The notes beneath the pieces are model-generated. The model worked only from the letters and a program-made list of their open reading frames with translations, was not told the DNA's origin and did no database searches. Shown here piece by piece: positions 2,877-55,517 of a stretch of 64,000 nt of DNA; the stretch's first letter is position 1, and each line of letters opens with the position of its first letter. The stretch covers positions 8,820 through 72,819 of IMG/VR virus record IMGVR_UViG_3300032038_000060, one strand, 5' to 3'. This DNA comes from a virus. Its lineage: Duplodnaviria > Caudoviricetes. Both the position numbers and the translations under genes were made by a program.

Positions 2877-3064
2877 AAAAAAAACCGAGAAAACATCTTT
2901 CTTCGGTCTTGAAGCTCTTGCGAGCCTTTATGTTAAGCGTTACGCCTGTGTCATTGAAAGTACACTCTCATGCCACCGCATAACTCTTATCATATCCACC
3001 ACCGTGGTTACAAGCCCTCGAAAGCAAAAACCCCGGCCTGAGCTCATCGCCGGCCTGGAAAACC
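2877..3064 (-). ncRNA. GGTTTTT-bracketed structured module G (candidate ncRNA)
   Basis: Minus strand reads GGTTTT, hairpin CCGGC/GCCGG, GGGGTTTTT, a ~130-nt body, then GTTTTCTCGGTTTTTTTT. Same layout as modules A-E. Confidence 0.4.
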
Positions 3065-3143
3065 AGTTATACCATTTGACTCCCTCATGTTTTTACTTGT
3101 CAGTCTAATACAATATTTGGTTTTTCTGATTGTGAAAACAATC

Positions 3144-3314
3144 GGGGTTTTTTCTGACAAGGCACTGCCTTACTGTAAGGAAGGTGCAGAGGTTCAGGGA
3201 AGGGTGACATGGGAGCTCGCTCACGATGGCGCAATTACTTGAAGCACTGCAAGATCTTAACAAGACCAGTGCCGATGGCAGGGTTTTTTAGGTTTTTGTT
3301 TCCATACGCAAAGG
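3144..3314 (+). ncRNA. GGTTTTT-bracketed structured module C (candidate ncRNA)
   Basis: 130-nt body differs from the copy at 55588-55760 at 7 positions. Closing stem GGCACTG/CAGTGCC. Upstream GATTGT-GAAA-ACAATC GNRA hairpin. Tail GGGTTTTTTAGGTTTTTGTT..CGCAAAGG. Confidence 0.65.
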
Positions 3315-3378
3315 AGGGTTAAGGTTAGGGTTAACGTTAAGGTTGAATTAAATTAGAAACTTATATTTAACAATTTTT

Positions 3379-3879
3379 ATGAAGTGGTTCAGAAATTTAT
3401 TTAAGAAGAAATCTACCTCCCCTGAGGAGGCCGTACCTCTCACCATCGAGGGTGTAGAGCCTGCTCCTATGACACCGGAGCCTGACGATGCAGAACTGGC
3501 TGCACAAGCCATTCTTGAAACGCTGGCAGAGCCGAAGGCGGCAACGAAAACGAAGACGAAAACAAAAAAGAAAACCGTGAACCGTGAACCCTTAACCGAG
3601 AACCGTGCCTCTGCCGACCATTTTCGTGAGCTCGCGAAAAAGATACGCCAGGCACATGAGCAGTCACGGCAACGGACGCTGCGGTTTATATGTTACTGCG
3701 AGCAGGAACTGCAAAAGCCTGATCTGCCGGAGGTGGGTAAGGGCTCGCTCAGTCTGCTGGAGGCAGAACTGTATAAGCGCATCGACACGGTAGAGCGCGA
3801 GGGTGGCGACTTGAAACGCCGCTGGCAGCACTGCCTGGCCGAGGTTACAGTAAGGCGGATAGGAGTGGATAACGGTTAA
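3379..3879 (+). CDS. Hypothetical protein (166 aa)
   Basis: ATG after an AT-rich leader. Carries an in-frame ACCGTGA-type heptamer run (TVNREPLTENR). Confidence 0.65.
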   Translation: MKWFRNLFKKKSTSPEEAVPLTIEGVEPAPMTPEPDDAELAAQAILETLAEPKAATKTKTKTKKKTVNREPLTENRASADHFRELAKKIRQAHEQSRQRTLRFICYCEQELQKPDLPEVGKGSLSLLEAELYKRIDTVEREGGDLKRRWQHCLAEVTVRRIGVDNG

Positions 3880-3920
3880 CGGTTAGAGGTTAGAGAGGGC
3901 TGCGCGGTGGGCTCAGACCG

Positions 3921-4093
3921 AGGTTTTTCCATGATAGTATGCGGAAAACCTGTTAGGGTGTGTGATGTGAGGTGGGCGCTTTGGATGGATGCTTGCATAC
4001 AAGAAAAAGCGAATGCCTCGCATCATAAGGTGCTGCAGGCACTCGCATACTGTCATGGGGTTTTTTAGGTTTTTGTTAATACTCGCAAAGGGG
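3921..4093 (+). ncRNA. GGTTTTT-bracketed structured module B (candidate ncRNA)
   Basis: AGGTTTTT, then a 15-bp closing stem 3929-3943/4044-4058 (one T-G pair), then GGTTTTTTAGGTTTTTGTT..CGCAAAGGGG. Confidence 0.55.
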
Positions 4094-4261
4094 ATAGGGT
4101 TTTGTTTCCATACGCACCTCGTGCTTTTTCATTAGTATTCATGGGACTTGGAGACATAAAACGTGAAAGGCAAAACGCAATTAGAAACATGCGTTTAACA
4201 TTTATTATGTTTAAGGGAGTCAAGTACATTTCTGTGTTTTTTTAGCGACTGATGAAGGAGC

Positions 4262-4436
4262 GGGGTTTTTCCTGACAAGGCATAAACCTGACGCAAGGCA
4301 GGTGTAGAAGTTCAAGGACTGACGACATAGGAGCTTGTTCATAGTGACGGCAGAACTTGAATTGCGACATCAGTCTGTAAAGACTTTATGTCGATGGCAG
4401 GGGTTTTTTAGGTTTTTGTTTATCTTCGCAAAGGGG
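4262..4436 (+). ncRNA. GGTTTTT-bracketed structured module A (diverged paralog of C and D)
   Basis: Same ends as C/D (GGGGTTTTTCCTGACAAGGCA ... GATGGCAGGGGTTTTTTAGGTTTTTGTT). Compensatory stems GGCATAAA/TTTATGTC, TTCAAG/CTTGAA and AGTCT-GTAA-AGACT. Confidence 0.65.
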
Positions 4437-4439
4437 CAC

Positions 4440-4635
4440 AAAAAAGCGCCACCCCAATGAAAAGCTACAACATGGGATGGCGCGAGGGATGACACGAAAG
4501 TCATCCGCTGCATGGCTTTCTTAGGACAATTAATATACAAAAGCAGCACCTCACGGTGGTTATGGAAAAATGAGTGTAAGCAAATATCGCAGGAAACAGT
4601 CCTGACTCCAGAAAGAGTTCACAGAACTGATTTCT
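4440..4635 (-). ncRNA. Candidate small RNA H with its own promoter and intrinsic terminator
   Basis: Canonical TTTG-N20-TACCTTTG at 4672-4641. Internal CACC-GTGA-GGTG and GGATGAC/GTCATCC hairpins. Terminator GCGCCATCCCA/TGGGGTGGCGC plus T6. No convincing ORF. Confidence 0.65.
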
Positions 4636-4640
4636 GAGTG

Positions 4641-4672
4641 CAAAGGTACTACTTTTTTATGTATCTCGCAAA
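4641..4672 (-). promoter_or_regulatory. Bacteroidota-type housekeeping promoter (leftward)
   Basis: TTTG-N20-TACCTTTG matches the established -33 TTTG / -7 TAnnTTTG consensus. Confidence 0.75.
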
Positions 4673-5218
4673 TAATCAGTGAGTTATCTTCGCCGCCGCA
4701 AAAAATATTTTTAAGGAGTTCCGCCGTTCGCAGCATCTTATATTTTTGTAAAATACCGCGTAATGTATTGATTTACAATTATTTATAATATATTTTTGCG
4801 GTTATATATATTTTTTCCTTAATATAAAGTATAGTAAAAATAAATAAAAGTTATCTATATATTATATGTAATAGACTGATAATCAATCTTTTCTTTTCTT
4901 TGTTAAATCCTTTTTATATAATGAGGAGAGCGGGGAGTTCTTACCTTTCAGAGAAAGATATGATTTGTAGGAATATTTTATGTTTATAAAAGGTTTTGTC
5001 TAAAAACGGGGGTTTTTCGGGAACAGGGTGTTTTTAGGCTTGTAACTTGTTGATTTTCATATATGTTACATGTGCCCAGACGCTTTAGGAACTGAACAAG
5101 GCTAAAAGGGTGCGAAATTTGTCGTAACTTATTGATTATCAGGTGCGCCCCTAAATCGTACCAAAAGTGCCCAAATAAACATTTTTTCGGGGAATTAAAG
5201 ATAACTCGCAGATTATTT
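4671..5218. promoter_or_regulatory. Cluster of six IHF-consensus-like sites
   Basis: YAA-N4-TTGAT-W exact at 4759-4776, 5042-5059 and 5124-5141. One or two mismatches at 4671-4688 (minus), 4868-4885 and 5201-5218. Confidence 0.55.
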
Positions 5219-5247: not shown

Positions 5248-5263
5248 CAGAAAATTAAAACCG

Positions 5264-5863: not shown

Positions 5864-5881
5864 GCTTTGATTTGGGTTTCA

Positions 5882-6008: not shown

Positions 6009-6668
6009 TCAGCCGCGCATACTTTTGCCTTCAAAGACTATTACCTTCGTAATAGCTCTGAGGCGGTCGAGGGTGCGAAGGCCATAGCGGCCTTCGATGG
6101 AAGGTATGGCAGTGTCTGTGGCGCGAGTGGTACGCAGGTTGGTGGTAAGGACAAGCAGACCGCCGCGACGCTCGCAGCTGTCAACGATTTCGTTGAAGGG
6201 AATGTGACGGTTGCCATAAATGTTAACCTCCACGGGCTCGGTACCGATGTCGTCGATAAACAGGAGTGCGCCACACTTATCCTGTATTGTATCAAACTTC
6301 TGTGTCATGTCGATGGCCGTATAGCAGTTAGGGACTTTTCTGGCATAGCGGTTTATTAGCACCGGGATGATGTACTGACAGATTACTGTCTTACCCAGAC
6401 CGCAACTTCCCTGGCATAGCAGTCCCCTACCCTTGTTATCCGTTAGCCATTCAACCACCTTGTCATAGGCTGGGAGCCACTGATACTTCTCACCGAGATA
6501 ATATTGCAGGCCAGCACGCAGCTTTGCCTCTGCATCAGCGATGTGTATATGATGCTGCAGTTCTACTCGCGGTGTGTAGTTATACAACGCTTTACCATCA
6601 TGTCTGCTGGTGAGGTCGGCCACTCCGGCCCCGAAGTCATTCACGAGATTTTGATTTTCCATTACCAT
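6009..6668 (-). CDS. DnaC/IstB-like P-loop ATPase (helicase-loader type)
   Basis: Walker A GSCGLGKT, Walker B LLFIDDIGTE, TTNL and DRL motifs. Overlaps the rep stop codon. Confidence 0.8.
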   Translation of the reverse strand: MVMENQNLVNDFGAGVADLTSRHDGKALYNYTPRVELQHHIHIADAEAKLRAGLQYYLGEKYQWLPAYDKVVEWLTDNKGRGLLCQGSCGLGKTVICQYIIPVLINRYARKVPNCYTAIDMTQKFDTIQDKCGALLFIDDIGTEPVEVNIYGNRHIPFNEIVDSCERRGGLLVLTTNLRTTRATDTAIPSIEGRYGLRTLDRLRAITKVIVFEGKSMRG

Positions 6669-7951
6669 TCCTTCTGTCCTTTAAAATAATCTTCTGTCGT
6701 ATTCTGTATTATAGTGTCATTCCCACTACCCTTCTTCAGCGGCTGTGATGACACCTCTTGTGCGGAGGTGAAGCATTTGTTTTCCTCCTCACGGATATAA
6801 TCGTCTATGGCCTTATGAGTCCATGCTGCGATGTTACGGACATCGCTGTGTCTGCCTGCCATGAACTCGTCGTGCCACGTCTGCAGCTGTATGACAAACC
6901 CGGGCATGATAACGGGTGTTACACGACGGAGCAGGGCACGTGCCTGGTTGATGTGGAGTCGGAAAAATTCTATCATAAGTTTCTGACATAACTCACGGTT
7001 TGGGGCGTAATCATTTTCTTCTTGAATGGTTCGTCCGGCTTCTGTGGGCAATATAGTAAAGGCCACTGAATCAGGTCGTTTATATGGTGGCAGAGGTGTT
7101 CCATGTAATAATCCCTGGTAGGTGAAGGTGAAGTCAGAACCTCCACTCTCTGCAAGTTTATCAAGTTCTTTCTGGGCCTGATTGAGTACCTTTTCGCAGA
7201 ACTGACTCCATGAACCATAACGATTCTCACGTTCAGGATCGTCGCTATCCTTTACAAAACCAAGACGTGTGCGTAAATCGCGCATAGGTATAACAAACTG
7301 TTCACTCTTTAGCCGACGCCATTCTTCAGAAAGGTATATGTATAGGGGGTATGAAAAACTGCTACGCAGACGACCTGCTGTATATCCTATAAACCGAGTA
7401 TAGTTACTGAAGAGATTTATATCAAGAATATTTTCTGCCGTAAGTCGTGGAATGATAACTGTAAAATCAGTACCTATAAATTTTCCGCCCTCGCGCTTGC
7501 CATGTATCTGCATCAAATTCTCTGTACGGAAGGACCCCGGATTATTTTTGTCTGGGATAAAGCATTGCACATGAGTAAGGGACGCAAGAACAATTCGCGC
7601 CTCTTCATAATGTGTATCGTCGGCTATATCGGACATGTGAAGTTTGAAAAGGATATCGCCCTCGTTATAAATATCCCTCTTCTCCCTGACGACCTCAAAT
7701 TCATCCGTAATAAAGTTTAGGTATAATTGTCCGGTCTTGTCAGCCTGTGGCATCTTGGCAATGCGCCACAAACCTTGCAGACGCTGGAGCACGGCTATCA
7801 GCACACGGTAGCCAGTAACCTTATTCATCATCGGTAAGTGGGCCAACTGACGGGGCTGTGTAATCAAGTCCTGAAGACTTAGAGTAACGGCTTTTTTCTT
7901 CTTTTTCTTTGCCTTGGGTTTAGTTCCTTCGGCAGATTTCTTTGTAACCAT
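6662..7951 (-). CDS. Plasmid-type replication initiator (Rep_3/RepA winged-helix family)
   Basis: LRSSFSYPLYIYLSEEW..IPMRDLRTRLG..YGSWSQFCEKVLNQAQKEL matches the Rep_3 pattern. Start moved to the ATG at 7951 behind the promoter at 8010-7979. Iterons are adjacent. Confidence 0.8.
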   Translation of the reverse strand: MVTKKSAEGTKPKAKKKKKKAVTLSLQDLITQPRQLAHLPMMNKVTGYRVLIAVLQRLQGLWRIAKMPQADKTGQLYLNFITDEFEVVREKRDIYNEGDILFKLHMSDIADDTHYEEARIVLASLTHVQCFIPDKNNPGSFRTENLMQIHGKREGGKFIGTDFTVIIPRLTAENILDINLFSNYTRFIGYTAGRLRSSFSYPLYIYLSEEWRRLKSEQFVIPMRDLRTRLGFVKDSDDPERENRYGSWSQFCEKVLNQAQKELDKLAESGGSDFTFTYQGLLHGTPLPPYKRPDSVAFTILPTEAGRTIQEENDYAPNRELCQKLMIEFFRLHINQARALLRRVTPVIMPGFVIQLQTWHDEFMAGRHSDVRNIAAWTHKAIDDYIREEENKCFTSAQEVSSQPLKKGSGNDTIIQNTTEDYFKGQKEW

Positions 7952-7978
7952 AAGAGTATTTTTTGTTGTAGCTGGGTG

Positions 7979-8010
7979 CAAAGGTAAGTATTTAAATCGT
8001 AACCTCCAAA
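7979..8010 (-). promoter_or_regulatory. rep promoter
   Basis: TTTG-N20-TACCTTTG. Confidence 0.7.
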
Positions 8011-8194
8011 TTTTTTGAAAGATTTTTTTATTTTTAATTGCATTTTTATTTGTTTTGATATTCAGAGATTTACATTTCATGGCCTTATATTTTGGGCAAG
8101 CACAACTATAAATTCGGAAAACCTTTCCTTATATTTAGGGCAGTTCTGGCTGCTATTTCGGTAAATAAAATCTTCATTTTCGAGAAACTTCTTT

Positions 8195-10720: not shown

Positions 10721-10963
10721 TATAATTTTAAGTTTTTTTAATGATTCAGGTCTGCCCACTGGCTTTGCCGAGCGCGTTTTGATTTTACTTTGCCCACTGG
10801 CTGCGCCGAGCGCTATTCGCACCTCAGGAATAAATAACGGCAACCTTGCAGGTTTTACATCAATTCTTTAATCATCAACTGATGCGAGCATCGTTGAATG
10901 CTTCAAGATTTATTGTATTGTTGTTTCACAACATTGTCGTTATTTATTCCGTTCGGTTTGTCT

Positions 10964-11024: not shown

Positions 11025-12215
11025 ATGGTAGTTAAAATCGGAAATAGTGAATACCTGAAGCGGGTGAATAATATGACCGCTGTGGAGAAGGAAGAGTATC
11101 TGAGCAGGGTAGGGGAGTGGCTGAAGGAGCAGGCTCCGTTGCTTGTGCCTAAGATGGAGGAAGAGACTGCGCGGTTTCAGAACGTCATTCAGTGCAGTGT
11201 AGGATGGAACGATGCGGAGTGCAATGCTTGGACGGATGGTGTACGTCTGCTGACGGCGTATGCTGCTACTGGTGAGACTTGGCTGCCGGACATGCTGTAT
11301 GTGAAAGCGGCAAAGAGAAGCATCAGGAGGATGGTGGACATACTGCAAGCGGCTGTGATACCTCTTCGTGTGGTAAATGAAGTTGCAGAAGTTGATACCG
11401 GAAATGAGACAATTACCGAAGAACAGCGGCAACGCATTCTCCAGAAATACGGGGAGGCAAAAGAGGACCCTGCGGAGGAAACCAGCAAGGCAACGCAGGA
11501 TGTCGCTTCCTTTCAGGCTGATGCCAGTAATGGCGATATCGCTGGCGGGGATAAGGACGGAGAAGCGAAGGTAAACGATAACCTTAACGTTAACGATAAC
11601 AAACCTGAAACCAGGAACCTGAAACCAGAAACTAAGATGGTGCCGGTGCGTCCGAAGCACATTGACCAGTATGTGCATTTGTTGCCGAAGAAAACGCAGG
11701 AGAGGGCGGCGATGGTGCAGAGTTTATTGCGTGAACTTGATATGGCACGTGAAAATGAGCGTAAGCTGATGGATAACAATGCGCACCCTGACACTATAGC
11801 ACAGTGGGCTAAGATGGCTACCAATATCGACAATAAACTGAAGTCTATCTATCAGGAGCTGGACGACGAATGGGAACGTCTGGCAAAGAGCGGCAGGGTG
11901 ACTGTTGATGATTTTGGGAATGCGCACGTGGTTCCTGGCGAAAACGATAACGAAAACGATAACGAAAACGATAACGTTAACGAAAAGGCTGAGTTGACGC
12001 CGGAGCAGAGGGAGAGACGTCGTAATCTGAGAAAGTGGCTTACTGACACTCGCAGGGGTAATGGTGCTGCACGTGAGGAGCGTGTAAAGAAGTGGCGCGA
12101 GAACTTTGCGGAGTATCTAACTCTGGAGGGTGATACTGCCTTCAAGGATGAGAAGATTATCGAGGCGGCGGAGCATTATGGGATAGACATGGAAGATGTA
12201 AGAGGTAAGATGTAA
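11025..12215 (+). CDS. Hypothetical protein, first gene of the rightward morphogenesis/lysis operon
   Basis: Long ORF. Start moved to the ATG at 11025 behind the late motif. In-frame KPETRNLKPET and NDNE repeats. Confidence 0.75.
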   Translation: MVVKIGNSEYLKRVNNMTAVEKEEYLSRVGEWLKEQAPLLVPKMEEETARFQNVIQCSVGWNDAECNAWTDGVRLLTAYAATGETWLPDMLYVKAAKRSIRRMVDILQAAVIPLRVVNEVAEVDTGNETITEEQRQRILQKYGEAKEDPAEETSKATQDVASFQADASNGDIAGGDKDGEAKVNDNLNVNDNKPETRNLKPETKMVPVRPKHIDQYVHLLPKKTQERAAMVQSLLRELDMARENERKLMDNNAHPDTIAQWAKMATNIDNKLKSIYQELDDEWERLAKSGRVTVDDFGNAHVVPGENDNENDNENDNVNEKAELTPEQRERRRNLRKWLTDTRRGNGAAREERVKKWRENFAEYLTLEGDTAFKDEKIIEAAEHYGIDMEDVRGKM

Positions 12216-12893: not shown

Positions 12894-13046
12894 ATGAAGA
12901 AGAATTGTTTGAATTGTATGAGGGTAAAACCTCTGCTTGATGGAATTGCGAAGAAGGGTCACGGCTGTATAAATAATCCTGACATGCGTGTCAACGGACG
13001 TATGGTATGTGAGGAGTGGAAGTCGGGAGACGTGACAATAGTTTAA
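12894..13046 (+). CDS. Small Cys-containing protein (50 aa)
   Basis: MKKNCLNC..GCIN..VCEEWK. True ATG follows the heptamer run. Confidence 0.55.
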   Translation: MKKNCLNCMRVKPLLDGIAKKGHGCINNPDMRVNGRMVCEEWKSGDVTIV

Positions 13047-13079
13047 AGTTTAAAGTTTAAAGTTTAAAGTTAAAGAGTT

Positions 13080-13704: not shown

Positions 13705-13748
13705 CGGTTTCAGGTTTTAAGTTTCAGGTTTCAAGTTTCAAGTGAGTT

Positions 13749-14177
13749 ATGACACCGAAAGAGAATTGCAAACGTTTTGTTTCTGCTGTGTCGAAGCGCA
13801 GCGGGATATGTAAGGCGACTGTCGAGCAGGTGCTGCCGGCAATATTTGACGAGATACGTTATCAGTTGGTAGAGGGTAAGATTCCACATGTGCCTATTGA
13901 TTCGTTCGGCACCTTTGCCATAAAAGAGATGCCGCAACGTCAGTATCACTATACTCGCGGCGGTAAGGATGAGTTGCGCATTCTGGAGGCAAAGAAGATA
14001 ATAAAGTTTGCTCCGGCACATAACCTTGCCAAAGAGGTGAAGTGTGGGGTATTTGACCCTACGCGAAGAGCATTCACCCGTCATCCTGACGACCCGATAA
14101 TCAGGCGTCGCAAGAACTTTAAGTATAAGCCTTTGATAGGAGATATACCGAAGGGGCAAGTAACGGTTATAGGTTAA
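13749..14177 (+). CDS. HU/IHF-like DNA-bending protein
   Basis: VSKRSGICKATVEQVLPAIFDEI..IDSFGTFAIKE..IIKFAPAHNL follows the HU/IHF pattern. Confidence 0.75.
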   Translation: MTPKENCKRFVSAVSKRSGICKATVEQVLPAIFDEIRYQLVEGKIPHVPIDSFGTFAIKEMPQRQYHYTRGGKDELRILEAKKIIKFAPAHNLAKEVKCGVFDPTRRAFTRHPDDPIIRRRKNFKYKPLIGDIPKGQVTVIG

Positions 14178-14209
14178 AGGTTAACGGTTAAAGATTAAAG
14201 ATATAGGTT

Positions 14210-14863
14210 ATGGAAGACAATGATTATCGCTATGATGGCGACGAACCTGTAAAGGAGATTATACGCAGATTCTTTTATGTTATGATTGTTTTTTTCTCAA
14301 CAATCATTGGGTGTCTGTTGATATGTTCGTTTTTCAGCAGCTGCAGCGCACCGAGGGAAACCTCGTACATAGAGCAGCATAAAATGGAGAGGATGATGGA
14401 ACGCATGGATTCTGTCATCAGCACAAAGACTATTATACAGCAGGATAGTGCTTGGCGTGAGTCTATCATGCGCCAGTTTGAGAGCATACGGGAAAAGAGT
14501 GACACGAGCCATACCATAGTGCTTGACTCCGCCGGAAATGTTATCAGGGAGAAAATAATTATAAACAATATCCGCGAGACAACCAGCGAGAAGGAGCGTA
14601 AGGAACGCGAAGGGATGATACACCGTATGGAGGTGATGGATTCTACTATGAATATCATGCGTCAGCAACTCAGCACTACTGACTCCCTTCTACGTTCGAG
14701 GGAAGATACAAAGATAAAGGAGGTAGAGAAAGACCTGTCATGGTGGCAACAGGCAAGGATATGGTTAGGTAATATGGTACTGATAGCACTTGTCATCGCG
14801 GCTGCGATATGGGTAGTTAAGAAGAGGACTTGGTGGCTGACGTTGATAAGGAAGATTATATAG
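14210..14863 (+). CDS. Lipoprotein with a C-terminal membrane anchor, probable spanin
   Basis: Hydrophobic signal ending FSSC (lipobox-like), coiled-coil middle, C-terminal TM (IWLGNMVLIALVIAAAIWVV). Lies upstream of the endolysin. Confidence 0.55.
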   Translation: MEDNDYRYDGDEPVKEIIRRFFYVMIVFFSTIIGCLLICSFFSSCSAPRETSYIEQHKMERMMERMDSVISTKTIIQQDSAWRESIMRQFESIREKSDTSHTIVLDSAGNVIREKIIINNIRETTSEKERKEREGMIHRMEVMDSTMNIMRQQLSTTDSLLRSREDTKIKEVEKDLSWWQQARIWLGNMVLIALVIAAAIWVVKKRTWWLTLIRKII

Positions 14864-14907
14864 TTTCAGGTTTCAGGTTTCTGGTTTCAGGTTTCAAGTT
14901 TTAGGTT

Positions 14908-15174
14908 ATGAAGACTTTAGCATTATCAGAATTGCGCCGTGTTGCTGAGCGCTTTGACGCTAAGCATGAGCGCATACCGTGGAAGGTTTGGTATGTGGCG
15001 GCCAGTAATGGCGACTGCATAAGGGGTGAGGCGTGTGTCACTATTGCAGTTGATGTTAATGGTCCGGGAGCTTTTCCTTCACGGCTGGTACAGTTTACCG
15101 CCAGCGGACAGACACGCCGCCTGCGCGACTGCTGCATACTGAGGGCGGACGATTTTATACTGAGGGTGTTATAA
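14908..15174 (+). CDS. Hypothetical protein (88 aa)
   Basis: Clean ORF between heptamer runs. Confidence 0.65.
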   Translation: MKTLALSELRRVAERFDAKHERIPWKVWYVAASNGDCIRGEACVTIAVDVNGPGAFPSRLVQFTASGQTRRLRDCCILRADDFILRVL

Positions 15175-15236
15175 CGGTTAACGGTTAAAGGTTAACGGTT
15201 AAAGGTTAGAGATTTTAAAAAAAAAATATAAAGACT

Positions 15237-15965
15237 ATGACTATCTACAAAGAGGGTTCAAGTAATCGAACCATAAATAAATTGATACAGAAAGCAGTGG
15301 GGGCTTATCCCGATGGTGTATGGGGGCCTATCACGACAGAATGTCTGAAGGCATGGCAGAGAGAAAATAATCTGACTCCAGATGGTATAGCGGGTCCGGC
15401 CACTTTAGCCAAGATGGGACTTGCGGCAACGAGCACATCTTCTTCCCAAAACTCTTCAACAATAAAGCATGCTGACCTTATACTGAAAAAATCGAAGCGA
15501 CGTATTGACTACATTGCCGTGCATTGTACCGCCTCACGTGAAGGTCAGGCAATGACGGTGGAGGAGATACGCAAGAACCATCGGGCACAAGGATGGAGTG
15601 ATATAGGGTATCACTACGTAATAACACTTGACGGCAGCGTACATCTGGGGCGCGACGTGGATATTGCAGGCTCTCACGTGAAGGGTTATAATGCCAATTC
15701 TATCGGCGTAGTATATGTCGGTGGACTTGAAAACAAAACCAATGTGCCGTATGTTCAGCTGAAGCCAAAGGATACACGCACAGAGGCGCAGAAGGCGGCG
15801 CTGCTGTCGCTGCTGATGGATTTAAGGAAGTTATATCCCAAGGCAAAGATACAGGGGCACAGGGATTTTTCGCCCGATAAAAACCATGACGGGATTATCT
15901 CTGCCGATGAATGGATAAAGGATTGTCCGTGCTTTGATGCGAAGAAGGAATATAGGGATGTTTAA
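15237..15965 (+). CDS. Endolysin: peptidoglycan-binding domain plus N-acetylmuramoyl-L-alanine amidase (Amidase_2)
   Basis: DGVWGPIT / DGIAGPAT PG-binding repeats; IAVHCTAS, DIGYHYVI, SIGVVYVGG, GHRDF, KDCPCF. Confidence 0.9.
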   Translation: MTIYKEGSSNRTINKLIQKAVGAYPDGVWGPITTECLKAWQRENNLTPDGIAGPATLAKMGLAATSTSSSQNSSTIKHADLILKKSKRRIDYIAVHCTASREGQAMTVEEIRKNHRAQGWSDIGYHYVITLDGSVHLGRDVDIAGSHVKGYNANSIGVVYVGGLENKTNVPYVQLKPKDTRTEAQKAALLSLLMDLRKLYPKAKIQGHRDFSPDKNHDGIISADEWIKDCPCFDAKKEYRDV

Positions 15966-15998
15966 TGGTTTCAAGTTTCAAGTTTCAGGTTTCAAGTT

Positions 15999-16649
15999 AT
16001 GGCACAGGTCAGTACTATACCGCAGCAGTTGATGACGTCGGCTCTGCTGCATTTCCAGAACGGCGTACCTATTGACGATTGCAACTGCCGGGCGGAGCAC
16101 AAGCGCCGTCTGGCAAGGGTGAGTCATGTATATTGGCAGTGGGTGAGAAACCCTTTCCTTGATGCGTTTGCTATGTTCAAGCAACTGTCGAAAGGTAAAT
16201 ATGCTGACGTACAGAGTGCATGGCGAGTGGCGCAGAAAGATAAGATTCTGTTTGACTTTGTGGTAGATAATGTTTCGCCGTCATCACGTAAGCAGGATGA
16301 AGCGAAGGTAAGGTTTGCTGCAGAGCAGGCTATGAGGATAGGTGCGGAGACGGACAACCCTGATGCACTCGTAAAAGGTGGCAGGTTATTGTCAGACGTA
16401 GCCCATTTGAAAGATCCTGAGAGCGAGAACAGGGATATGAGCAAGGCAGTGTTCCTACCACCTGTAGTTACAACGAGCGCACACGAGGTGGATGATACTA
16501 AGGAGGATATGAGTGACAAGCAGTCTTTGGCTATCATGGATAAGTATAATGCCTATGTCGATGAGAAGCGTAAGATGATTGATGACAGAGTGTCCGTCAT
16601 GGAAGCAGAATCGGTAGTGATTCTCCAGAATGACGACATAACGGAATAA
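15999..16649 (+). CDS. Probable terminase small subunit
   Basis: Helical 216-aa protein immediately upstream of terL. Positional inference. Confidence 0.45.
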   Translation: MAQVSTIPQQLMTSALLHFQNGVPIDDCNCRAEHKRRLARVSHVYWQWVRNPFLDAFAMFKQLSKGKYADVQSAWRVAQKDKILFDFVVDNVSPSSRKQDEAKVRFAAEQAMRIGAETDNPDALVKGGRLLSDVAHLKDPESENRDMSKAVFLPPVVTTSAHEVDDTKEDMSDKQSLAIMDKYNAYVDEKRKMIDDRVSVMEAESVVILQNDDITE

Positions 16650-16668
16650 CGATATAACGACAAGTATA

Positions 16669-18600
16669 ATGAGCCGCATTGGAACTAACATAAATGTCAG
16701 TTCAGACAATCTGGAGGCGAAGATGATGCCAGATATTGACGAGGAAAGACCCGAACCCGAAGAGGGTGGGGAAGTAGATTTGCTGGGTGACGGTCAGCAT
16801 AAGATATACATGCACCGTGGGCAGTTGGACATCTACAACTTTGGCTCATCTCATTCTATCGTCCGTGCGGCCCGTGGCTTCGGCAAGACCTCGCTCTTAG
16901 GCATCGACAGCATGAAGTGTGTGCTTGGCTTGCCGCGTCTGATAGGACTTTTCCTTGGTGCCAGTGCCAAGCAGCTGATGTGCCGCACCATGCCCAATGT
17001 ACTGAAGATATACGACATGCTGGGTTTTCAGGAGGGTGTCTTCTATTTTCGTGGGCAGGCTCCTGCCAAGCTGCGATGGGAGATGCCGTTAGCGAAGATA
17101 CGCAACTGGGAGAGTGCCGTGCATTTCCAAAATGGCGCAGTCATGCTTGGAATTTCAATGGCAGTGAAGGGTAGTTGTAACGGCATAAACGCCGGATGGA
17201 TGAGGGGTGACGAGACAAAGTATATGCCGTGGTCGAGAGTAAAGGAAGAAGCCTTCCCTACTGTGCGTGGTGAATATCTGCCTAAGGCCATGCGTAAAAC
17301 TGAGCAGAAGCGGTGGGGCTACGGCACTGATCCGAAGATGAACAACTATTATTGCTCCACCATGTTCGTCAGCGATGCCGGTCTGACTCAGAAGCAATGT
17401 GAGTGGGAGAAGGAGGAGATGTATGAGACTCACGACATTAACAAGCAAATTGCGGAAATGCTGGCAGACCTAAAGTATCTGGAACGTCACAATCCAAAGA
17501 TGGCGGTACAGCTGGCACAGAATGAAACGTTTTTGAAGAAGTTGCACCTGCTGCGCTCGCAGAGCGAGACATTCTGGAACTTCTCTTCCTTGGAGAACGC
17601 TGCTATGCTCGGCGGTGAGGCGTGGATACGCCAGATGAAACGGCAGTTGCCAGACCTGATGTTCCGTATCCAGATTCTCGGTCAGAAGAAAGGTGCCGCC
17701 AAGGATGGCTTCTATTCCAACTTCGACATAGACATCCACGGCTACACATGTGATGACTTTGAGACCTATAGCCTGATGGCCGACATGTTTACCGTGAAGC
17801 AGAAGGGTAAGGCGCTCGACGTGCAGAAGTGGCCGACCGCCTACGAGACGGAGAGCATTGACTACGACCGGTGTAAGGCTGCTGCCGACAACTGCAGCCT
17901 TGATACGGACGTGGACTATACAGAGCCGCTGCGTATTGCTATCGACTGCAATGCCAACCTGAACTGTATGATTATCGGACAGACAAGGAACTTCGAGGGC
18001 CGTCAGTCGCTGATGATACTGAAGAGCATATATGTTATGAACGAACGGAAGTTGCGTGCGCTTTGCCGTGACTTCACGGATTATTATAAACCCCATCTCA
18101 GACGTAACGGCAATGTGGTGTTTTATTTTACCAGCACGATTAAACAAGGCGCAGCAACTGCGTACGCCGTAGAAGGGGCGGAGGATAACCGTTTTGACAG
18201 GGTGGTTATTCAGGAGCTCTCGCAGATGGGCTGGGATGTGACGGACGTAGATATGGGCGGTGCGATGTTCCGTGAGGACAAGTATCAGTTTATCAACGAC
18301 GTGCTGGCTTTCCAGCAGACACCAGCACTGCGTATCAACCGCGAGGCTGGTCGTAACGACTACCTGATTACCGCCATCGAGAATGCCGGCATCCTGCCTG
18401 GCACGTTCAAGAAGGACAAGAGCAGGGAGAAACTGAAGAGTACCGACCCGGACTCTCTGGGCGGCGACCCCCGTGAGCGTACCGACGTGACGGACGCGCT
18501 GGATGATTTGCTCATAGGTGTGCGCTTCCACGGAGAGGGACGCCCGAAGATTGGCGGTGGACTGCGTGGCAGGTACAGAAATATCAGATTAGGGCATTGA
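16669..18600 (+). CDS. terL: Terminase large subunit
   Basis: Walker A AARGFGKTS, Walker B MRGDETKY, nuclease motifs IAIDCNAN and TDVTDALDDLL. Confidence 0.85.
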   Translation: MSRIGTNINVSSDNLEAKMMPDIDEERPEPEEGGEVDLLGDGQHKIYMHRGQLDIYNFGSSHSIVRAARGFGKTSLLGIDSMKCVLGLPRLIGLFLGASAKQLMCRTMPNVLKIYDMLGFQEGVFYFRGQAPAKLRWEMPLAKIRNWESAVHFQNGAVMLGISMAVKGSCNGINAGWMRGDETKYMPWSRVKEEAFPTVRGEYLPKAMRKTEQKRWGYGTDPKMNNYYCSTMFVSDAGLTQKQCEWEKEEMYETHDINKQIAEMLADLKYLERHNPKMAVQLAQNETFLKKLHLLRSQSETFWNFSSLENAAMLGGEAWIRQMKRQLPDLMFRIQILGQKKGAAKDGFYSNFDIDIHGYTCDDFETYSLMADMFTVKQKGKALDVQKWPTAYETESIDYDRCKAAADNCSLDTDVDYTEPLRIAIDCNANLNCMIIGQTRNFEGRQSLMILKSIYVMNERKLRALCRDFTDYYKPHLRRNGNVVFYFTSTIKQGAATAYAVEGAEDNRFDRVVIQELSQMGWDVTDVDMGGAMFREDKYQFINDVLAFQQTPALRINREAGRNDYLITAIENAGILPGTFKKDKSREKLKSTDPDSLGGDPRERTDVTDALDDLLIGVRFHGEGRPKIGGGLRGRYRNIRLGH

Positions 18601-19321
18601 TGATTGAACTCGATACGATATACAACGAGGACTGTCTGGAGGGTATGCGGCGCATGCCGGACGGGTGTGTGGATTTGGTTATTACAGACCCACCATATCT
18701 GATAGGCAATCAGGGTGGGGGATTCTGGAGCAAGGCAGCGGAGGGCAACCATTACAATGCTCGCGGTACTCGCAAGGGTATGGAGAAGCTGGGCAATATC
18801 AAAGACGGCTTTGATGATGCCATTCTTGACGAACTCTGCCGCGTGATGAAAAAGATAAACCTCTACGTCTTTTGTTCGCAGAAGCAGATACAGCGTTACC
18901 TCGATTACTTTGTCAACAAGAGAGGCTGCAACTGGAACCTGATATCATGGCACAAGACGAACCCGATACCAGCCTGCGGTAACAAATATCTGAGTGATAC
19001 GGAATTTATCCTGTTCTTCAGAGAGAAGGGCGTGAGGGTGTATGGCACCTACGAGACAAAGCGCACGTTCTATGTCACGCTGCGTAACCAGGAGGATAAC
19101 GTGCGCTATAACCATCCCACAGTGAAGCCGCTGAATATCATCCGCAACCTTATCATCAACAGCAGCGAAATGGGGGGGTAATTTTAGACCCTTTCATAGG
19201 AACGGGCACTACTGCCGTCGCTGCAATGCAGGAGGGTAGGCGATATATAGGCTTCGAGATAGACAAAGGATATTACGAGACGGCGAAGGGACGAGTCTCT
19301 GCCCTTGCAAATCACGTGTGA
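18600..19321 (+). pseudogene. N4/N6 DNA methyltransferase split by a frameshift at a G7 tract (19172-19178)
   Basis: DLVITDPPY and HPTVKP lie in frame 0, which stops at 19181. The SAM motif VILDPFIGTGTT..YIGFEID continues in the -1 frame to TGA at 19321. Confidence 0.85.
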
Positions 19322-19335
19322 GCACCTTATTTTGG
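19301..19335 (+). promoter_or_regulatory. Putative phage late promoter (portal)
   Basis: GCCCTTG-N20-TATTTTTG; this variant also fits TAnnTTTG. Confidence 0.65.
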
Positions 19336-19362
19336 GGATAAAATAAAAACACAAACACAGCT

Positions 19363-21165
19363 ATGAGTAAGAAGAATAGCAATAAGGGTAATGGCGTTAC
19401 TATCCACCGCCCATCGACCTATAATGAGTTTTCCAAAATTCACAGTTCACTGCTGTCGAGACGCTTTGCTGCTATTGACACGCTAAAGCCCGGCACAGTG
19501 CGTGACATATCACTGGCACTGGGCGATGCTGCCAATGCCGGTGCTGAGCAGATGGCAGCCGGCATGGGCTGCGGTGCATGGAGTACTGGGCCGTTGTCAA
19601 AGGTGGCATGGGCGTTCGACGGTCGCGACAATACTGTTCATTCCGTCAAAGACAAAGACGGCAAGGATATGGGCCTTGGCTATGTGGACTGGGGTGCCGG
19701 CAATAATGTTCCGTCGGTCATACCGCCGTTGGCGATGTCAAGCCCTTATACTGCCGCACCTTTGAGGTATATCGCCGACCTGATATCCGGACTGGGTGTC
19801 AGACTGATGTACCGCTTTCCTGACGACAAGCTGGTGCAATATAAGTATGCAGGTGAGATACTGAAGCAAAAGGTGCGTGAATTGGAGAAGCAGAACCCCG
19901 TAGAAGATGTCATCGACGAGGTAAACGGTGTAGTTGCTATGGCTACAGGCTCAGAGCAACAAGCCCGTAAGGAAAACCCTGAACTGAAAGATGCCAAGGA
20001 GGCGTTGGATAAGTGGGAGAGGGTATGGTATGGCTATGAGGAAAAGGACGAGATTTTGGGTAGTACTCACATCCCCGGTGCCAAGGAATTCCTGGAGGAC
20101 AATAACCTCGACCTACACCTGTCACAGTGCATGCAGGACCACGTGATGCTGGACATCCACTTCCCGACGGTGGGTCTGGAACGCGGGCACAAGGGGTCTT
20201 GGAATCCCAAGGTGATACAGGTGGGACATATAAGCGCTGCTACGATGCGCATTGAGAAACAAAATGAACATGGGCACTCAAACCACTGTTACCGTTCAGA
20301 GCAGTGGCGTACCCTCGGCATAGGTTCCAAGGTTGTCACCGACCCAGATAATCAGAAGATTGTGATGTACCCTGCGTGCATGCCGCAGCATCTGCTCAGT
20401 GACTTGAAATATATCGTGAAATCGAACCAGAAGACACGCATAAAGGCACGTCCTACGTGGGTGGTATGCCCTACGTTCTATCCGTCACTCAACAAGCCGT
20501 ATTACCCACAGCCTGCATGGTGGAGCGTCTTTACGAGTAAGGCGTTTGATTTCTCGGCGACCATTTTGTATGACAAGTATAAGGCCCGCGAGAACTCTAC
20601 CTCGTGGGGTAAAATTATATACATCAGCCTTGACTACCTGAACATGGTGTTCGGCGACATGGGCATTGCGGGCAACAAAGAGGAGCAGGACAAGTATGTC
20701 GAAGAGCTTGATCAGGAAATCGAACGGTTCCTGCAGCAGCGCGAGAACAACGGCAAGATGATGCGCCAATTTATGTGGGAAGGGAAGGACAGTAAGCAGA
20801 ATAAGAACATTGAGATTGTCGATGTTGCAGAGACCGTGAAGGATGCCGTGCAGGCCGGCAAGGACGAGTTGGAACTGGCTACCTCTCCTATATTTCTGGC
20901 GTTAGGAATAGATCCGCGCCTGGTCGGTGTGCCGATGGTAAAGTCAAGCAACGGCGGTACGGCTGTCAGGGAGTTGCACCTGCTGAAGCAGCAGCAGCTG
21001 AACATTCATCAGAGGCTATACCTGAACTGGCTCAATACGGCTGTCTGTGCCTTCAACGGCTGGACCGAAGGCAATGCAGAGTTCCATATTGTGCAGCAGA
21101 CGCTAACCACGCTTGACAACAGCAAGACCGGCACGGTAGAGACCATCGCCGGCGAAGAGGCGTAG
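19363..21165 (+). CDS. Portal protein
   Basis: 600 aa after terL. YVDWGAGNNVP..SPYTAAPLRYIADLISGLG, LALGIDPRLVG and SNGGT..RE motifs resemble Bacteroidota phage portals. Confidence 0.7.
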   Translation: MSKKNSNKGNGVTIHRPSTYNEFSKIHSSLLSRRFAAIDTLKPGTVRDISLALGDAANAGAEQMAAGMGCGAWSTGPLSKVAWAFDGRDNTVHSVKDKDGKDMGLGYVDWGAGNNVPSVIPPLAMSSPYTAAPLRYIADLISGLGVRLMYRFPDDKLVQYKYAGEILKQKVRELEKQNPVEDVIDEVNGVVAMATGSEQQARKENPELKDAKEALDKWERVWYGYEEKDEILGSTHIPGAKEFLEDNNLDLHLSQCMQDHVMLDIHFPTVGLERGHKGSWNPKVIQVGHISAATMRIEKQNEHGHSNHCYRSEQWRTLGIGSKVVTDPDNQKIVMYPACMPQHLLSDLKYIVKSNQKTRIKARPTWVVCPTFYPSLNKPYYPQPAWWSVFTSKAFDFSATILYDKYKARENSTSWGKIIYISLDYLNMVFGDMGIAGNKEEQDKYVEELDQEIERFLQQRENNGKMMRQFMWEGKDSKQNKNIEIVDVAETVKDAVQAGKDELELATSPIFLALGIDPRLVGVPMVKSSNGGTAVRELHLLKQQQLNIHQRLYLNWLNTAVCAFNGWTEGNAEFHIVQQTLTTLDNSKTGTVETIAGEEA

Positions 21166-21247
21166 TCTGTTGGAAACAGGATGGTTTCTGGTTTCTGGTT
21201 CCAGGTTTTAAGTTTCAGGTTTCAAAAAATACAAAACAGGAAGTAAG

Positions 21248-27167: not shown

Positions 27168-28418
27168 TCATGCCACTAAAGGTTTACATTTTAACATATC
27201 GGCATCGAACTCTATAATCTGTGAGATGTCGTTCGTATCAAAAATCTCGCGGCGAAGGTTATAACTGGCTGTGTGAGAGAGTATTCCAAGATAGCTGCTG
27301 ATAGTGAGGTTTGCGGATTTGACATTGCGAAGATCTATTTCCTGCATTCTAACCTTTATACGCTCCAGCGTCTTGTTACTCACATAATCACGGTACGGTT
27401 TCACAAAAGTACCCAGAAACTCTACTCCCTTATGCACCTCCTGTATATGTAGCTTGCCCATAAGTAATTCCAGCCCAAGTTCATCATATAAAAACTCTCG
27501 CACCTTTGGCACTTGGGCCAAAAGCCATTCCTTGTCAGGGTCAATCATATTGCTGTCATCAACATATCTGCCATAATGTCTGCACAAAAGGATACGCTTT
27601 ACGTATTGGTCGAACACATTCAGATAGACATTACTGAAGAGTTGTGAGGTAAGATTGCCGATTGGCAGAGCCAATCCTTTCTCGACAAAGCGCATGCACT
27701 TAGCATGGTCAATATCATCCCAGTCAGAGGGGTCGCCTACTATCTGGCAATTTTCCATCGGGTCAAGCATCACAATCTGCTCGGTGAGCCACAAGATAAA
27801 ATCGAAGTCACGTATGTCTGCCCATGTGGTTTCAGAAGTCAGTAGCACACCAGAAGGTATTGACACCTCATCGGACACACCTACTTTGTGTGTTGCCATT
27901 TTCTTTAACGAGGCCGTCGCTATCTTCAGTAACTTCTCGCGATTTATGTGCATAAAATAACCGCGAATATCAAGGCTCATAGCGTATGCTTCCTCCTGCC
28001 AATTAAGCGACGCCTCACGCACATGTTTACGAATACGTTCTATTCCATAGCCTGTTCCACGTCCCTCTATGCAAGAATAGGAGTCGGCAATAAAGGTGCG
28101 TTCAAACAGTTGGTGCGTATAGTTGAAATACAGGTGATGCACGATGCGGTCACGAAAAATTGCAGCGAACACTTCGCGTTTCTTAGGATATGTAACAACA
28201 AAGCACTTTGATGGAAGTGCTTTGTATCTGCGCATTAGCAGGTCATCACAAAGAGAATTTAGATTCTCTGCCAGATTGCGCTCGAACTTCTGCACGTACG
28301 ACATCTTGTGCTTATGCCTTGCGGCATCATAAAATGCTACATATAGGTCGTAAAGAAGTTGCTGGCGGGTAAGATGATACGTATGGCTAAGAGAGGAATT
28401 GACTGACTCGTATGTCAT
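27168..28418 (-). CDS. DGR reverse transcriptase
   Basis: KREVFAAIFRDRIVHH, LDIRGYF, LPIGNLTSQ, YGRYVDD. ATG at 28418 just after the TR. Confidence 0.95.
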   Translation of the reverse strand: MTYESVNSSLSHTYHLTRQQLLYDLYVAFYDAARHKHKMSYVQKFERNLAENLNSLCDDLLMRRYKALPSKCFVVTYPKKREVFAAIFRDRIVHHLYFNYTHQLFERTFIADSYSCIEGRGTGYGIERIRKHVREASLNWQEEAYAMSLDIRGYFMHINREKLLKIATASLKKMATHKVGVSDEVSIPSGVLLTSETTWADIRDFDFILWLTEQIVMLDPMENCQIVGDPSDWDDIDHAKCMRFVEKGLALPIGNLTSQLFSNVYLNVFDQYVKRILLCRHYGRYVDDSNMIDPDKEWLLAQVPKVREFLYDELGLELLMGKLHIQEVHKGVEFLGTFVKPYRDYVSNKTLERIKVRMQEIDLRNVKSANLTISSYLGILSHTASYNLRREIFDTNDISQIIEFDADMLKCKPLVA

Positions 28419-28430
28419 CGTAGATAAGGG

Positions 28431-50192: not shown

Positions 50193-50207
50193 CAGAATAA
50201 AAAACTT

Positions 50208-54152: not shown

Positions 54153-54201
54153 AACGATTTTTAATTCATAATTCACAATTCATAATTCATAATTATCTTT
54201 T

Positions 54202-54235
54202 GCCCTTGAAGTTGGAAAGATGAAACACTATATTG
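54202..54235 (+). promoter_or_regulatory. Putative phage late promoter (holin)
   Basis: GCCCTTG-N20-TATATTG. Confidence 0.7.
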
Positions 54236-54256
54236 CAGGCAAACAAGATAGAAACG

Positions 54257-54826
54257 ATGGTTATAAAACTCTTGGCGGCTATTGCCGCATCATACAATGA
54301 ATTTATGCAAGCGATGGCAGGCGTGACATGGACAGAGTGGATATGCCTTACCTTAGGAGGTCTCCTCGGATGGGTGATAGGCGAGTTTGCCCCCGCATTC
54401 CCGCTGCTGGCAGTAGCATTCCTCTTTGTGTTATACGATGCTTGGTCAGCTTTCGAGTTAGACAAGCGAGTACATAAGGTCTATCCCGACAAGGTAAAGC
54501 GCGAGCAGGCGAAGTTCGTCAGTTATAAATTCAGGTCCGTCATACCTACGCTCATCGAGCGCATGATAATCATCATCCTGGCATTCTGCTGCGAGCGTTG
54601 GGTCTTCGTACACGTCAGCGTACCATTCAGCTATATTGCAGCTGCCGTAGTCTGCGCGGAGCAGGCACTGAGCATTGCAGAGAACAAGGCATCATGCCGT
54701 CTGCCGGGCGACAAGCACGCAAGGCTGTGGAAGATGCTGGCGAAGGTGCTGATAGACAAGACGGAGAGGCACTTCGACATAGACCTCGGCCCTGAAGTCC
54801 ATAAAGAAGAATTTAAAGAGCAGTAA
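54257..54826 (+). CDS. Holin
   Basis: Three hydrophobic segments and EQALSIAEN. Start at the ATG at 54257. Confidence 0.7.
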   Translation: MVIKLLAAIAASYNEFMQAMAGVTWTEWICLTLGGLLGWVIGEFAPAFPLLAVAFLFVLYDAWSAFELDKRVHKVYPDKVKREQAKFVSYKFRSVIPTLIERMIIIILAFCCERWVFVHVSVPFSYIAAAVVCAEQALSIAENKASCRLPGDKHARLWKMLAKVLIDKTERHFDIDLGPEVHKEEFKEQ

Positions 54827-54845
54827 AGATTTTACAGCAGTTAGT

Positions 54846-54958
54846 TTTTTTCATACATGTTTTTGAAGGTTTTAGCCTTTTAAAGGTATTTAGGTTAGTT
54901 TTTTGGTTAGATTAGAAACGAAGAAGACCGCAGTCCGTGAGGATAGCGGTCTTTGCTT
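54846..54958 (+). terminator. Terminator with an upstream TTTTTTCATACATG motif and TCC-GTGA-GGA inner hairpin
   Basis: AAGACCGC..TCCGTGAGGA..GCGGTCTT. Shares TTTTTTCATACATGTTTTT with 21248. Confidence 0.55.
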
Positions 54959-55001
54959 TAAGGCTCATGTGCCAGCCTACCTGAGACATGGAGCCTGAAA
55001 C

Positions 55002-55322
55002 TCAAAATCCAAAGGCTTTGTCTATCTCCTCCTCGGTCTCGTCACGCTCCTCGGAACGTAAGTACTTCGGCGGCGGTATTGGGGTCAGCAGGAAGTCCGG
55101 CAGCCATGCCTCTTCATGCAGCCCGCCAAGACTATCGCAGAAATGTAACAGGACAAAATTGTTCTTGATGCCTATGCCCTCACCTTCACGGCCATGCCAG
55201 CGGTTAAGGAGCAGACGCACGGCATCGCGGAACTGATACTTTGTCTCAAACCCGTGTTCGAGGTGGTCACGCAGTGGCACGGAGTCCATGTTCTCCGCCA
55301 CGCGGTAATAATGCTTACTCAT
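55002..55322 (-). CDS. Hypothetical protein (106 aa)
   Basis: Start at the ATG at 55322 (MSKHYYR), directly behind module E. Confidence 0.65.
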   Translation of the reverse strand: MSKHYYRVAENMDSVPLRDHLEHGFETKYQFRDAVRLLLNRWHGREGEGIGIKNNFVLLHFCDSLGGLHEEAWLPDFLLTPIPPPKYLRSEERDETEEEIDKAFGF

Positions 55323-55337
55323 AATTTTTTCTTTTAT

Positions 55338-55517
55338 AAACAAAAACCAAGAAAACCCTTTTTGAAAGTTTCAGCACTGTCGTGCTTATACTCTGCTATC
55401 GTCATGAATGTGGTCGTAAGTAAACTTCCACCATCTTCCTGCCGATATCACGACCTATCCTAACGGAAGTTTAAACTTTCCAAAAGAAAAACCCTGCTGA
55501 CGCAGAAAAAACCTCTG
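55338..55517 (-). ncRNA. GGTTTTT-bracketed structured module E (candidate ncRNA or leader)
   Basis: GAGGTTTTT, hairpin CTGC/GCAG, GGTTTTT, closing stem GAAAGTTT/AAACTTTC, then GGGTTTTCTTGGTTTTTGTT. Confidence 0.5.

Follow-up and report, generated by a model that had tools for sequence, protein, structure and literature searches.

What are the short, T-tract-bracketed modules that recur in an uncultured tailed phage of the class Caudoviricetes, and how did they come to be there? The window analysed here is a stretch of 64,000 nucleotides, bases 8820-72819 of the 72.8-kb IMG/VR virus record IMGVR_UViG_3300032038_000060, which is judged 61% complete. A first-pass annotation of this window had described six modules (A to E and G; Table 1). 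All six were confirmed at their coordinates and strands, as was the divergent arrangement of G(-) with C(+) and of E(-) with D(+). The bracketed elements are not specific to the phage; they are a dispersed repeat of host chromosomes. In the explanation that we favour, with moderate confidence, the two head-to-head dimers (G/C and E/D) and the solo modules B and A represent non-autonomous forms of a selfish element built on a structured repeat of the host, and they probably serve as transcription stops in the phage.

The repeated parts of the modules are far more frequent than chance predicts. The exact 20-base tail GGGTTTTTTAGGTTTTTGTT occurs four times in the window and once more, in module E, with two mismatches, against an expectation of 0.00. 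GGTTTTT is found at 27 sites where 9.7 are expected, and 17 of the 27 lie inside modules, so that the bracket is not as frequent elsewhere in the window. The bodies are stem-closed, as had been described, and measure 128-130 nt. On the 5' side, a module reads GTTTT, an optional small GC hairpin and then GGTTTTT, and on the 3' side it ends in GGGTTTTNNNGGTTTTTGTT. When the small hairpin is absent, the 5' bracket reads GTTTTCTTGGTTTTTC, which is nearly identical to the tail. An interpretation of the brackets as target-site duplications was ruled out, because the variable NNN of the 5' bracket and that of the tail differ within one module. The sequence CGCAAAGG does follow modules A-D. Of 319 distinct tails, it follows four, each of them from this phage lineage, and it is not a feature of the family; the antisense promoter that had been proposed from the reverse of the tail end rests on it and would be local at most. 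AACAAAAAC is present in the leaders of genes 31664 and 35031, as had been noted. With two sites outside the modules against 0.8 expected in the whole window, it cannot carry the model in which the tails pair with ribosome-binding sites.

The bodies of B, E and G had been regarded as unrelated to those of A, C and D, and this part of the first-pass annotation did not survive. A metagenome scan with the pattern GGTTTTT-N120-140-GGGTTTTNNNGGTTTTTGTT matched at least 120 stretches; these yielded 148 modules, extracted by a script, among which 136 distinct bodies were represented. The minimum-free-energy shape was a four-way junction ([[][][]]) in 110 of 131 bodies, and almost all bodies contain a central hairpin of the type GGRWG-CUYG-CWYAC-AAG, the stem of which covaries. 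MAFFT and RNAalifold misaligned the arms P3 and P4 when the subfamilies were mixed, and a single-subgroup seed solved this misalignment. The covariance model (CM R1; 151 positions, 42 pairs) was accordingly seeded with 16 sequences of one metagenomic subgroup, none of them from the window. With the filters off, it found all six window modules at full length, with E values from 7e-16 to 3e-7. The same four-way junction is present in all six, including B, E and G. A long stem, P1, closes the junction; P2 and P4 form short hairpins in which C-GNA-G triloops are frequent, and the long arm P3 ends in a G.A mismatch and a G(CUUG)C tetraloop. The apical motif reads GGATG-CTTG-CATAC in B, GGAAG-TTTA-CTTAC in E and GGGAG-CTNG-CTCAC in A, C and D. 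Module G is a member of a 17-member sequence subfamily, and module C covaries with module A. The fold of A, C and D is also that of B, E and G, in diverged form, and the six modules belong to one family.

Selection on this fold is evident in the 147 distinct members that were compared. Pair cells are standard in 93.5% of cases versus 60.1% in shuffles, two-sided changes occur in 41 of the 42 pairs, and the covariation score is 0.817 versus 0.209 for shuffled alignments and at most 0.085 with slid partners; these figures are raised towards structure by the fitting of the alignment to the model, and to that extent this tells against our interpretation, although the margin is still very large. 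G.U makes up 4.5% of the stem pairs and A.C 0.9%; therefore, the folded strand is the strand of the T-tracts, and the fold is confined to it. The T-tracts are conserved throughout the family, as had been supposed from the six modules, and the brackets are kept even in about 60 members that CM R1 found outside the search pattern. In Rfam 15, no match was obtained in the window at gathering thresholds, and the region 2600-5200 gave chance-level matches only (E of at least 0.8). ARAGORN found no tRNA or tmRNA genes in the window. The family has no Rfam entry, the large structured-RNA catalogues do not name it, and no description of it was found in the searchable literature.

The modules have a standard arrangement. 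A profile taken from the model alignment and searched with nhmmer located 396 modules in 1.7 Mb of module-bearing sequence. Among 105 cases of neighbours less than 400 nt apart (median gap, 112 nt), 95 were head-to-head, 2 tail-to-tail and 8 tandem; therefore, G/C and E/D are dimers of the family-standard kind. Their boundaries are sharp. In the isolate Xylanibacter brevis ATCC 19188, two dimers separated by 5 kb share about 97% identity over exactly the stretch from AACAAAAACCTCAAAAACCC to GGGGTTTTNNNGGTTTTT and are unrelated in the sequence around it, and further copies dispersed on several contigs (seven at 90-99% and five at 91-97% identity) have the same left boundary. Because the identity runs exactly from tail to tail, the dimer, of about 480 bp, is a discrete unit of repetition whose outward tails form imperfect terminal inverted repeats (AACAAAAACCNNNAAAACCC ... 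GGGTTTTNNNGGTTTTTGTT, about 17 of 20 positions matching). A further GC-rich hairpin (CCCTCCC-loop-GGGAGGG), with a G-rich run and then a T-tract behind it, precedes the 5' bracket of many modules (at L314:4400-4470 and in loci L078, L108, L110, L116, L124 and L179), and in X. brevis both dimer halves extend up to this palindrome.

The orientation of the modules bears on their possible effects on adjacent genes. Solo modules between co-directional neighbour genes are in the same sense in 37 cases and antisense in 41, which argues against a general role as cis leaders and against a role as terminators of neighbour genes. The 63 dimers are located in 46 co-directional, 9 convergent and 8 divergent intergenic regions, about the usual proportions. 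A cis-leader role had been suggested for C in front of gene 3379 and for E in front of gene 55322. These modules lie 79 and 17 nt 5' of the same-strand genes, A-C are near a plasmid-type replicon, and C-GAA-G triloops are stable in DNA too, so that a signal for replication priming on single-stranded DNA could also be imagined. Modules D, G, A and B have no same-strand downstream gene, the family-wide orientation is random, and dozens of copies per host chromosome are unfit for origin signals. We consider a leader or priming role very improbable.

It is also improbable, in our estimate, that the modules are purely terminators or insulators selected by the host or phage, bidirectional as dimers and lacking a mobility of their own. 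Such a role would agree with a hairpin and a U-run at both ends, with the strictly intergenic positions, and with dimers that would block transcription from either side. However, dimers in divergent regions are as frequent as expected (8/63), the head-to-head order puts the terminator on the far side, and the junction and apex are dispensable for termination. The GH43 gene beside an X. brevis copy appears, on a reading of its sequence, to have its own simple hairpin and T-run terminator, and the copies behave as dispersed repeats.

A terminator would need far less conservation than is seen in the fold and the P3 apex; therefore, a functional RNA, acting in trans or as the partner of a nuclease, is a serious rival. 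The modules might be a paralogous, multi-copy family of trans-acting small RNA genes. Each would be transcribed from a promoter of its own in the dimer spacer, be protected at its 5' end by the hairpin and finish at an intrinsic terminator, and a protein of the host or the phage would be bound by the conserved P3 apex or by the U-tracts. The sponge that the first-pass annotation had proposed falls under this reading. The terminator-like 3' end and an orientation independent of the neighbour genes would suit such genes, and divergent promoters would suit the head-to-head pairs. In recent X. brevis copies, loops vary more than stems and most departures keep the pairing, as would be expected of a working RNA. 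On the other hand, a search for the host-type promoter TAnnTTTG in 123 regions upstream of modules gave six scattered matches at no fixed distance, and some dimer spacers are merely 55-59 nt long. Near-identical copies whose similarity ends exactly at the tails, and the strict association with one nuclease clade described below, are also difficult to reconcile with small RNA genes. As for the sponge, the comparison with CsrB/RsmY-type RNAs gave a chance-level RsmY match only (14 bits versus a gathering score of 57), and the module loops are CUUG and GNA, not GGA as in those sponges. The small RNA explanation is thus unlikely in our view, with a probability that is low yet far from negligible.

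Chromosomes of Prevotellaceae from rumen and gut are the native setting of the family, and phages of these bacteria carry it. In species-representative genomes, the bracket pattern matched 116 stretches, all of rumen or gut Prevotella, Prevotellaceae or Bacteroidales, and these include the isolates X. brevis ATCC 19188 and Prevotella sp. tf2-5. CM R1 detected at least 27 copies in X. brevis and at least 26, at least 3 and at least 32 in three other genomes; these counts are lower bounds, as 150 of about 1100 candidates were scored per genome. The X. brevis copies sit between ordinary chromosomal genes, such as those for TonB, M16 peptidases, GH43 and SusE. A chromosomal copy in a metagenome-assembled genome of Prevotella sp. 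(L229) shares 89.7% identity with module E, a match that fits a transfer between phage and host and suggests the identity of the latter.

Among phages, a related 56.7-kb contig (L072) contains four modules. One of them, L072:9408-9563(-), is the orthologue of module B (96.8% identical) and keeps its brackets, so that the U tracts are not lost at this homologous locus. The closest relatives, L008 and L009, are devoid of G, C and B at the same sites; thus, the presence of modules varies within the lineage. Module content differs even between near-identical phages. In L008 (4720-4802), B is missing at the homologous site, yet another module starts about 150 nt further on (GTTTTTCTGCGAAGCAGGTTTTTTCC...). 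In L072, a one-directional block of about 14 small genes at 15456-20423, with ArdA as the last, has two near-identical modules lying antisense between genes. No modules were present in L007, a relative found through the tape-measure protein. The IMG/VR scan with the exact tail gave one match, due to chance, in a coding region, and that with the 5' body motif gave none. The first bracket pattern matched 61 IMG/VR loci, all judged to be chance (AT-rich and without closing stems), and a broader pattern yielded one true relative.

A protein is associated with the modules. Head-to-head pairs with spacers of 540-940 nt enclose an open reading frame (ORF) of 145-147 aa, which matches PF13366 (PDDEXK_3, E 1.8e-32) and TIGR04256 ("GxxExxY protein") only. 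The PF13366/TIGR04256 family is listed as being of unknown function (PMC3424549), and no functional study was found in the literature on GxxExxY, PF13366 or TIGR04256. In module-containing loci, the roughly 24 distinct close homologues (at least 63% identity) are all 19-260 nt from a module, and the distant GxxExxY homologues are kilobases away. About 20 of these 24 fit nesting in a dimer, with the downstream module co-directed with the gene and 25-105 nt after it. Because these loci had been picked for containing modules, a protein-first test was performed, in which the protein was searched in 61 relatives of X. brevis, 30 loci were taken and CM R1 was then run. At 51% identity or more, all six loci, from five genomes, were flanked by modules and three were fully nested; at 48% or less, none of the 24 loci had a module. 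The association is thus with one GxxExxY clade. The catalytic triad D81, E91 and K93 is invariant in 26 sequences. A single-sequence AlphaFold model was too poor for use, with a predicted local distance difference test score (pLDDT) of 51, and an alignment-based model reached a pLDDT of 91.7. Foldseek matched the latter weakly to generic nuclease folds (Cas4, E 1e-3; restriction-endonuclease-like; Hjc, E about 0.05).

This context admits the second form of a functional RNA, in which the module, as RNA or single-stranded DNA, works together with the GxxExxY nuclease, whether as its scaffold, as a substrate that it recognises or as a regulator resembling an antitoxin. It would be encoded at the 3' end of the gene, as in ωRNA/TnpB, and the solo copies and dimers would be orphaned partners. 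The co-directed downstream module at a short distance from the gene would be explained, as would the occurrence of modules of different subfamilies around the same gene clade. Four-way-junction resolvases are known among PD-(D/E)XK enzymes; the structure matches obtained here are weak and generic. Moreover, modules far outnumber the genes, the phage has six modules and no gene in its record, and no variable guide-like segment was identified. We judge this partnership to be unlikely.

In the explanation that we prefer, the complete element would consist of a (-) module, the GxxExxY gene and a (+) module co-directed with the gene. The gene-less dimers and solo copies, including all six in the phage, would be non-autonomous derivatives in the manner of REP/BIME-RAYT systems or of transposable elements of the miniature inverted-repeat type (MITEs). 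The unit would multiply discretely, with similarity stopping at the tails and the head-to-head dimer as its usual form, and the phage modules would be passengers from the host. We infer that mobility is provided by the nuclease. A more specific proposal is that the modules and the GxxExxY protein constitute a previously unrecognised selfish element of Bacteroidota, in which the 145-aa PD-(D/E)XK nuclease recognises the four-way junction of the end modules, as single-stranded DNA or RNA, to copy or move the element. We put this forward tentatively, as a possibility that is more doubtful than the general explanation. If it is true, it would be the first function for TIGR04256/PF13366 and would explain the conservation of the fold over the sequence, and phages would be vehicles for non-autonomous copies.

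The proposed role in the phage depends on the ends of the modules. P1 is followed by GGGUUUU in all members, that is, by a U-run directly after a GC-containing stem, as in an intrinsic terminator. The small hairpin and T-run (TTTTTT) of module C, at 3124-3147, were flagged as terminator-like in a consensus scan. Upon transcription, the small hairpin with its U-run and P1 with the U-runs after it are predicted to act as intrinsic terminators and to provide stable RNA ends, and each phage copy would then probably be a transcription stop between gene blocks. The T-tracts may plausibly be both element ends and terminator U-runs, as the two roles are compatible.

Several observations weigh against this explanation. 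Neither a transposition event nor a clean empty site nor a duplication of the target site was found; no target-site duplication is evident at two X. brevis copies, and in a search for empty sites in 30 X. brevis relatives, the species-level relatives were too distant for comparison. The module-less sites of L008 and L009 hold other filler, with no clean excision. The end motifs of solo modules are direct, not inverted. About four copies of the gene are not nested in a dimer, and no GxxExxY gene is present in the 72.8-kb phage record, itself 61% complete. The termination activity is predicted from sequence. Finally, very divergent copies keep the fold and recent ones tend to keep the pairing, which also fits a functional RNA.

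Table 1. Modules, dimer spacers and a weak candidate in the window (window coordinates; bit scores and E values from CM R1)
Feature	Position	Strand	Description
Module G	2877..3032	-	Left half of head-to-head dimer G/C; 36.4 bits, E 3e-7, full length
Module G, parts	2877..3032	-	5' T-tract, four-way-junction body, variant tail ATGTTTTCTCGGTTTTTTTT
Spacer of dimer G/C	3033..3145	.	113 nt; small 5' hairpins and first T-tracts of both modules
Module C	3146..3300	+	Right half of dimer G/C; 5' of gene 3379; 39.8 bits, E 4.6e-8
Module B	3922..4077	+	Solo, after gene 3379-3879; 71.4 bits, E 7e-16
Module A	4264..4420	+	Solo, paralogue of C and D; 39.5 bits, E 5e-8
Possible diverged seventh four-way-junction body	10827..10950	-	25.4 bits, E 1.6e-4, model positions 7-133 only
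Module E	55339..55493	-	Left half of dimer E/D; 5' of gene 55322; 53.8 bits, E 1.6e-11
Spacer of dimer E/D	55494..55588	.	95 nt; both small hairpins
Module D	55589..55744	+	Right half of dimer E/D; faces 3' end of gene 55763-56176(-); 46.5 bits, E 1e-9

The possible seventh body in Table 1 is weak and has no T-tract brackets, and it was not counted as a member. The gene content of the window is that of a tailed phage, with a tape-measure protein, a head maturation protease, a reverse transcriptase (486 aa, 27168-28628(-), phrog_1423, E 1.9e-76), a 2322-aa tail or virion protein and a replication initiator. An open-ended ORF of 916 aa at 3-2753(+), which continues upstream in the record, is the C-terminal part of a giant tape-measure protein. 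Its homologues have 2881-3797 aa and match PF10145 (the match being in the full-length homologue), which implies a very long tail. The same match ruled out the idea that this protein is a virion RNA polymerase using hairpin promoters. Gene 3379-3879(+), between modules C and B, encodes a 166-aa protein with no Pfam domain; it has more than 400 homologues, on contigs of up to 120-130 kb (Prevotella-type phages), and relatives have two paralogues, which lie on opposite sides of the tape-measure gene. A blastn search of 2700-4500 against phage sequences in GenBank gave no match.

Between module A and gene 5264, the region 4680-4980 is very AT-rich and has no ORFs. It adjoins the replication initiator gene (6662-8080; phrog_4402, a weak match), and the homologous region of relatives contains a ParA gene; it is probably an origin region of plasmid type. 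Runs of 7-nt repeats (GGTTTCA, GGTTAAC, GTTTAAA and similar) occupy many short intergenic gaps just 5' of start codons, mostly on the gene strand. They were found on the (+) strand at 2832-2860, 3316-3340, 13041-13074, 13706-13741, 14165-14192, 14863-14909, 15176-15208, 15960-16000 and 21183-21225, and on the (-) strand at 56219-56253, 11570-11632 and 11940-11981. Similar low-complexity runs occur 5' of modules in relatives (ATTGAAA/ATTGATA in L072). These runs could be unstructured leaders or arrays of protein-binding sites.

What seemed to be a puzzle of one phage is replaced by a picture at the level of a family, a large and strongly covarying group of structured repeats. As the family is common to rumen Prevotellaceae and their phages, it provides a host link for an uncultured phage. 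The strict association with one GxxExxY clade gives a concrete, testable context to a widespread nuclease family. For annotation, the modules should be masked or named, and not read as phage regulatory RNAs.

Several known systems resemble the modules in part. Intrinsic terminators share the stem followed by a U-run, seen at the small 5' hairpin and after P1; the modules differ in their conserved multi-branched body and apical motif, the doubled U-runs at both ends and their dispersal as repeats. Like the attC sites of integrons, the modules combine diverse sequence with a conserved one-strand fold and short conserved end motifs. However, attC sites have inverted R'/R'' core sites in place of direct T-tracts, and the modules have neither cassette arrays nor an integrase nearby. 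The ωRNAs of TnpB/IscB are likewise structured, non-coding elements that lie beside a small transposon-borne nuclease gene, co-oriented with it, and overlap the element end. In contrast, no guide segment was seen in the modules, the 145-aa protein has a PD-(D/E)XK fold, and the module data do not imply RNA guidance.

MITEs common to Prevotella and their phages have been reported (PMC11602168). The modules resemble them as small, gene-less, intergenic sequences with near-identical copies at unrelated loci, common to host and phage, and with a longer form that carries a candidate mobilising gene (GxxExxY). The imperfect terminal inverted repeats of about 20 bp are a property of the dimers only; the ends of solo modules are direct. 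The deep covariation points to selection on a one-strand fold beyond inverted repeats, and, since neither a target-site duplication nor an empty site was found, the modules fall short of full membership among the MITEs.

The closest parallel is with the repetitive extragenic palindromes (REPs), the bacterial interspersed mosaic elements (BIMEs) that they form and the REP-associated tyrosine transposases (RAYTs), including the REPINs of Proteobacteria. These are also multi-copy, structured intergenic repeats with strand-specific structure, commonly in inverted doublets. Doublets can join two repeat types, as BIMEs join Y and Z REPs. In REP/RAYT systems, a small nuclease-type gene is flanked by two inverted repeats (PMC2817692), and the modules likewise flank a nuclease gene in inverted orientation. 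The differences lie in both components. A REP is a 35-nt hairpin with GTAG ends, whereas the module is a 125-nt four-way junction with T-tract doublet ends, and the dimer halves are not mutually complementary. RAYTs are Y1 (HUH) transposases of the IS200/IS605 type, and the module-associated protein is a PD-(D/E)XK GxxExxY protein. The modules, moreover, occur in Bacteroidota and also in phages. They are not members of the REP/RAYT group, because the enzyme and the repeat fold differ; if the nuclease mobilises them, they would be a Bacteroidota counterpart with another enzyme and another nucleic-acid fold. The modules are dispersed structured repeats to which a nuclease is linked, a kind already known, and this study adds to it a previously undescribed fold and protein partner, together with a distribution across phages and their hosts.

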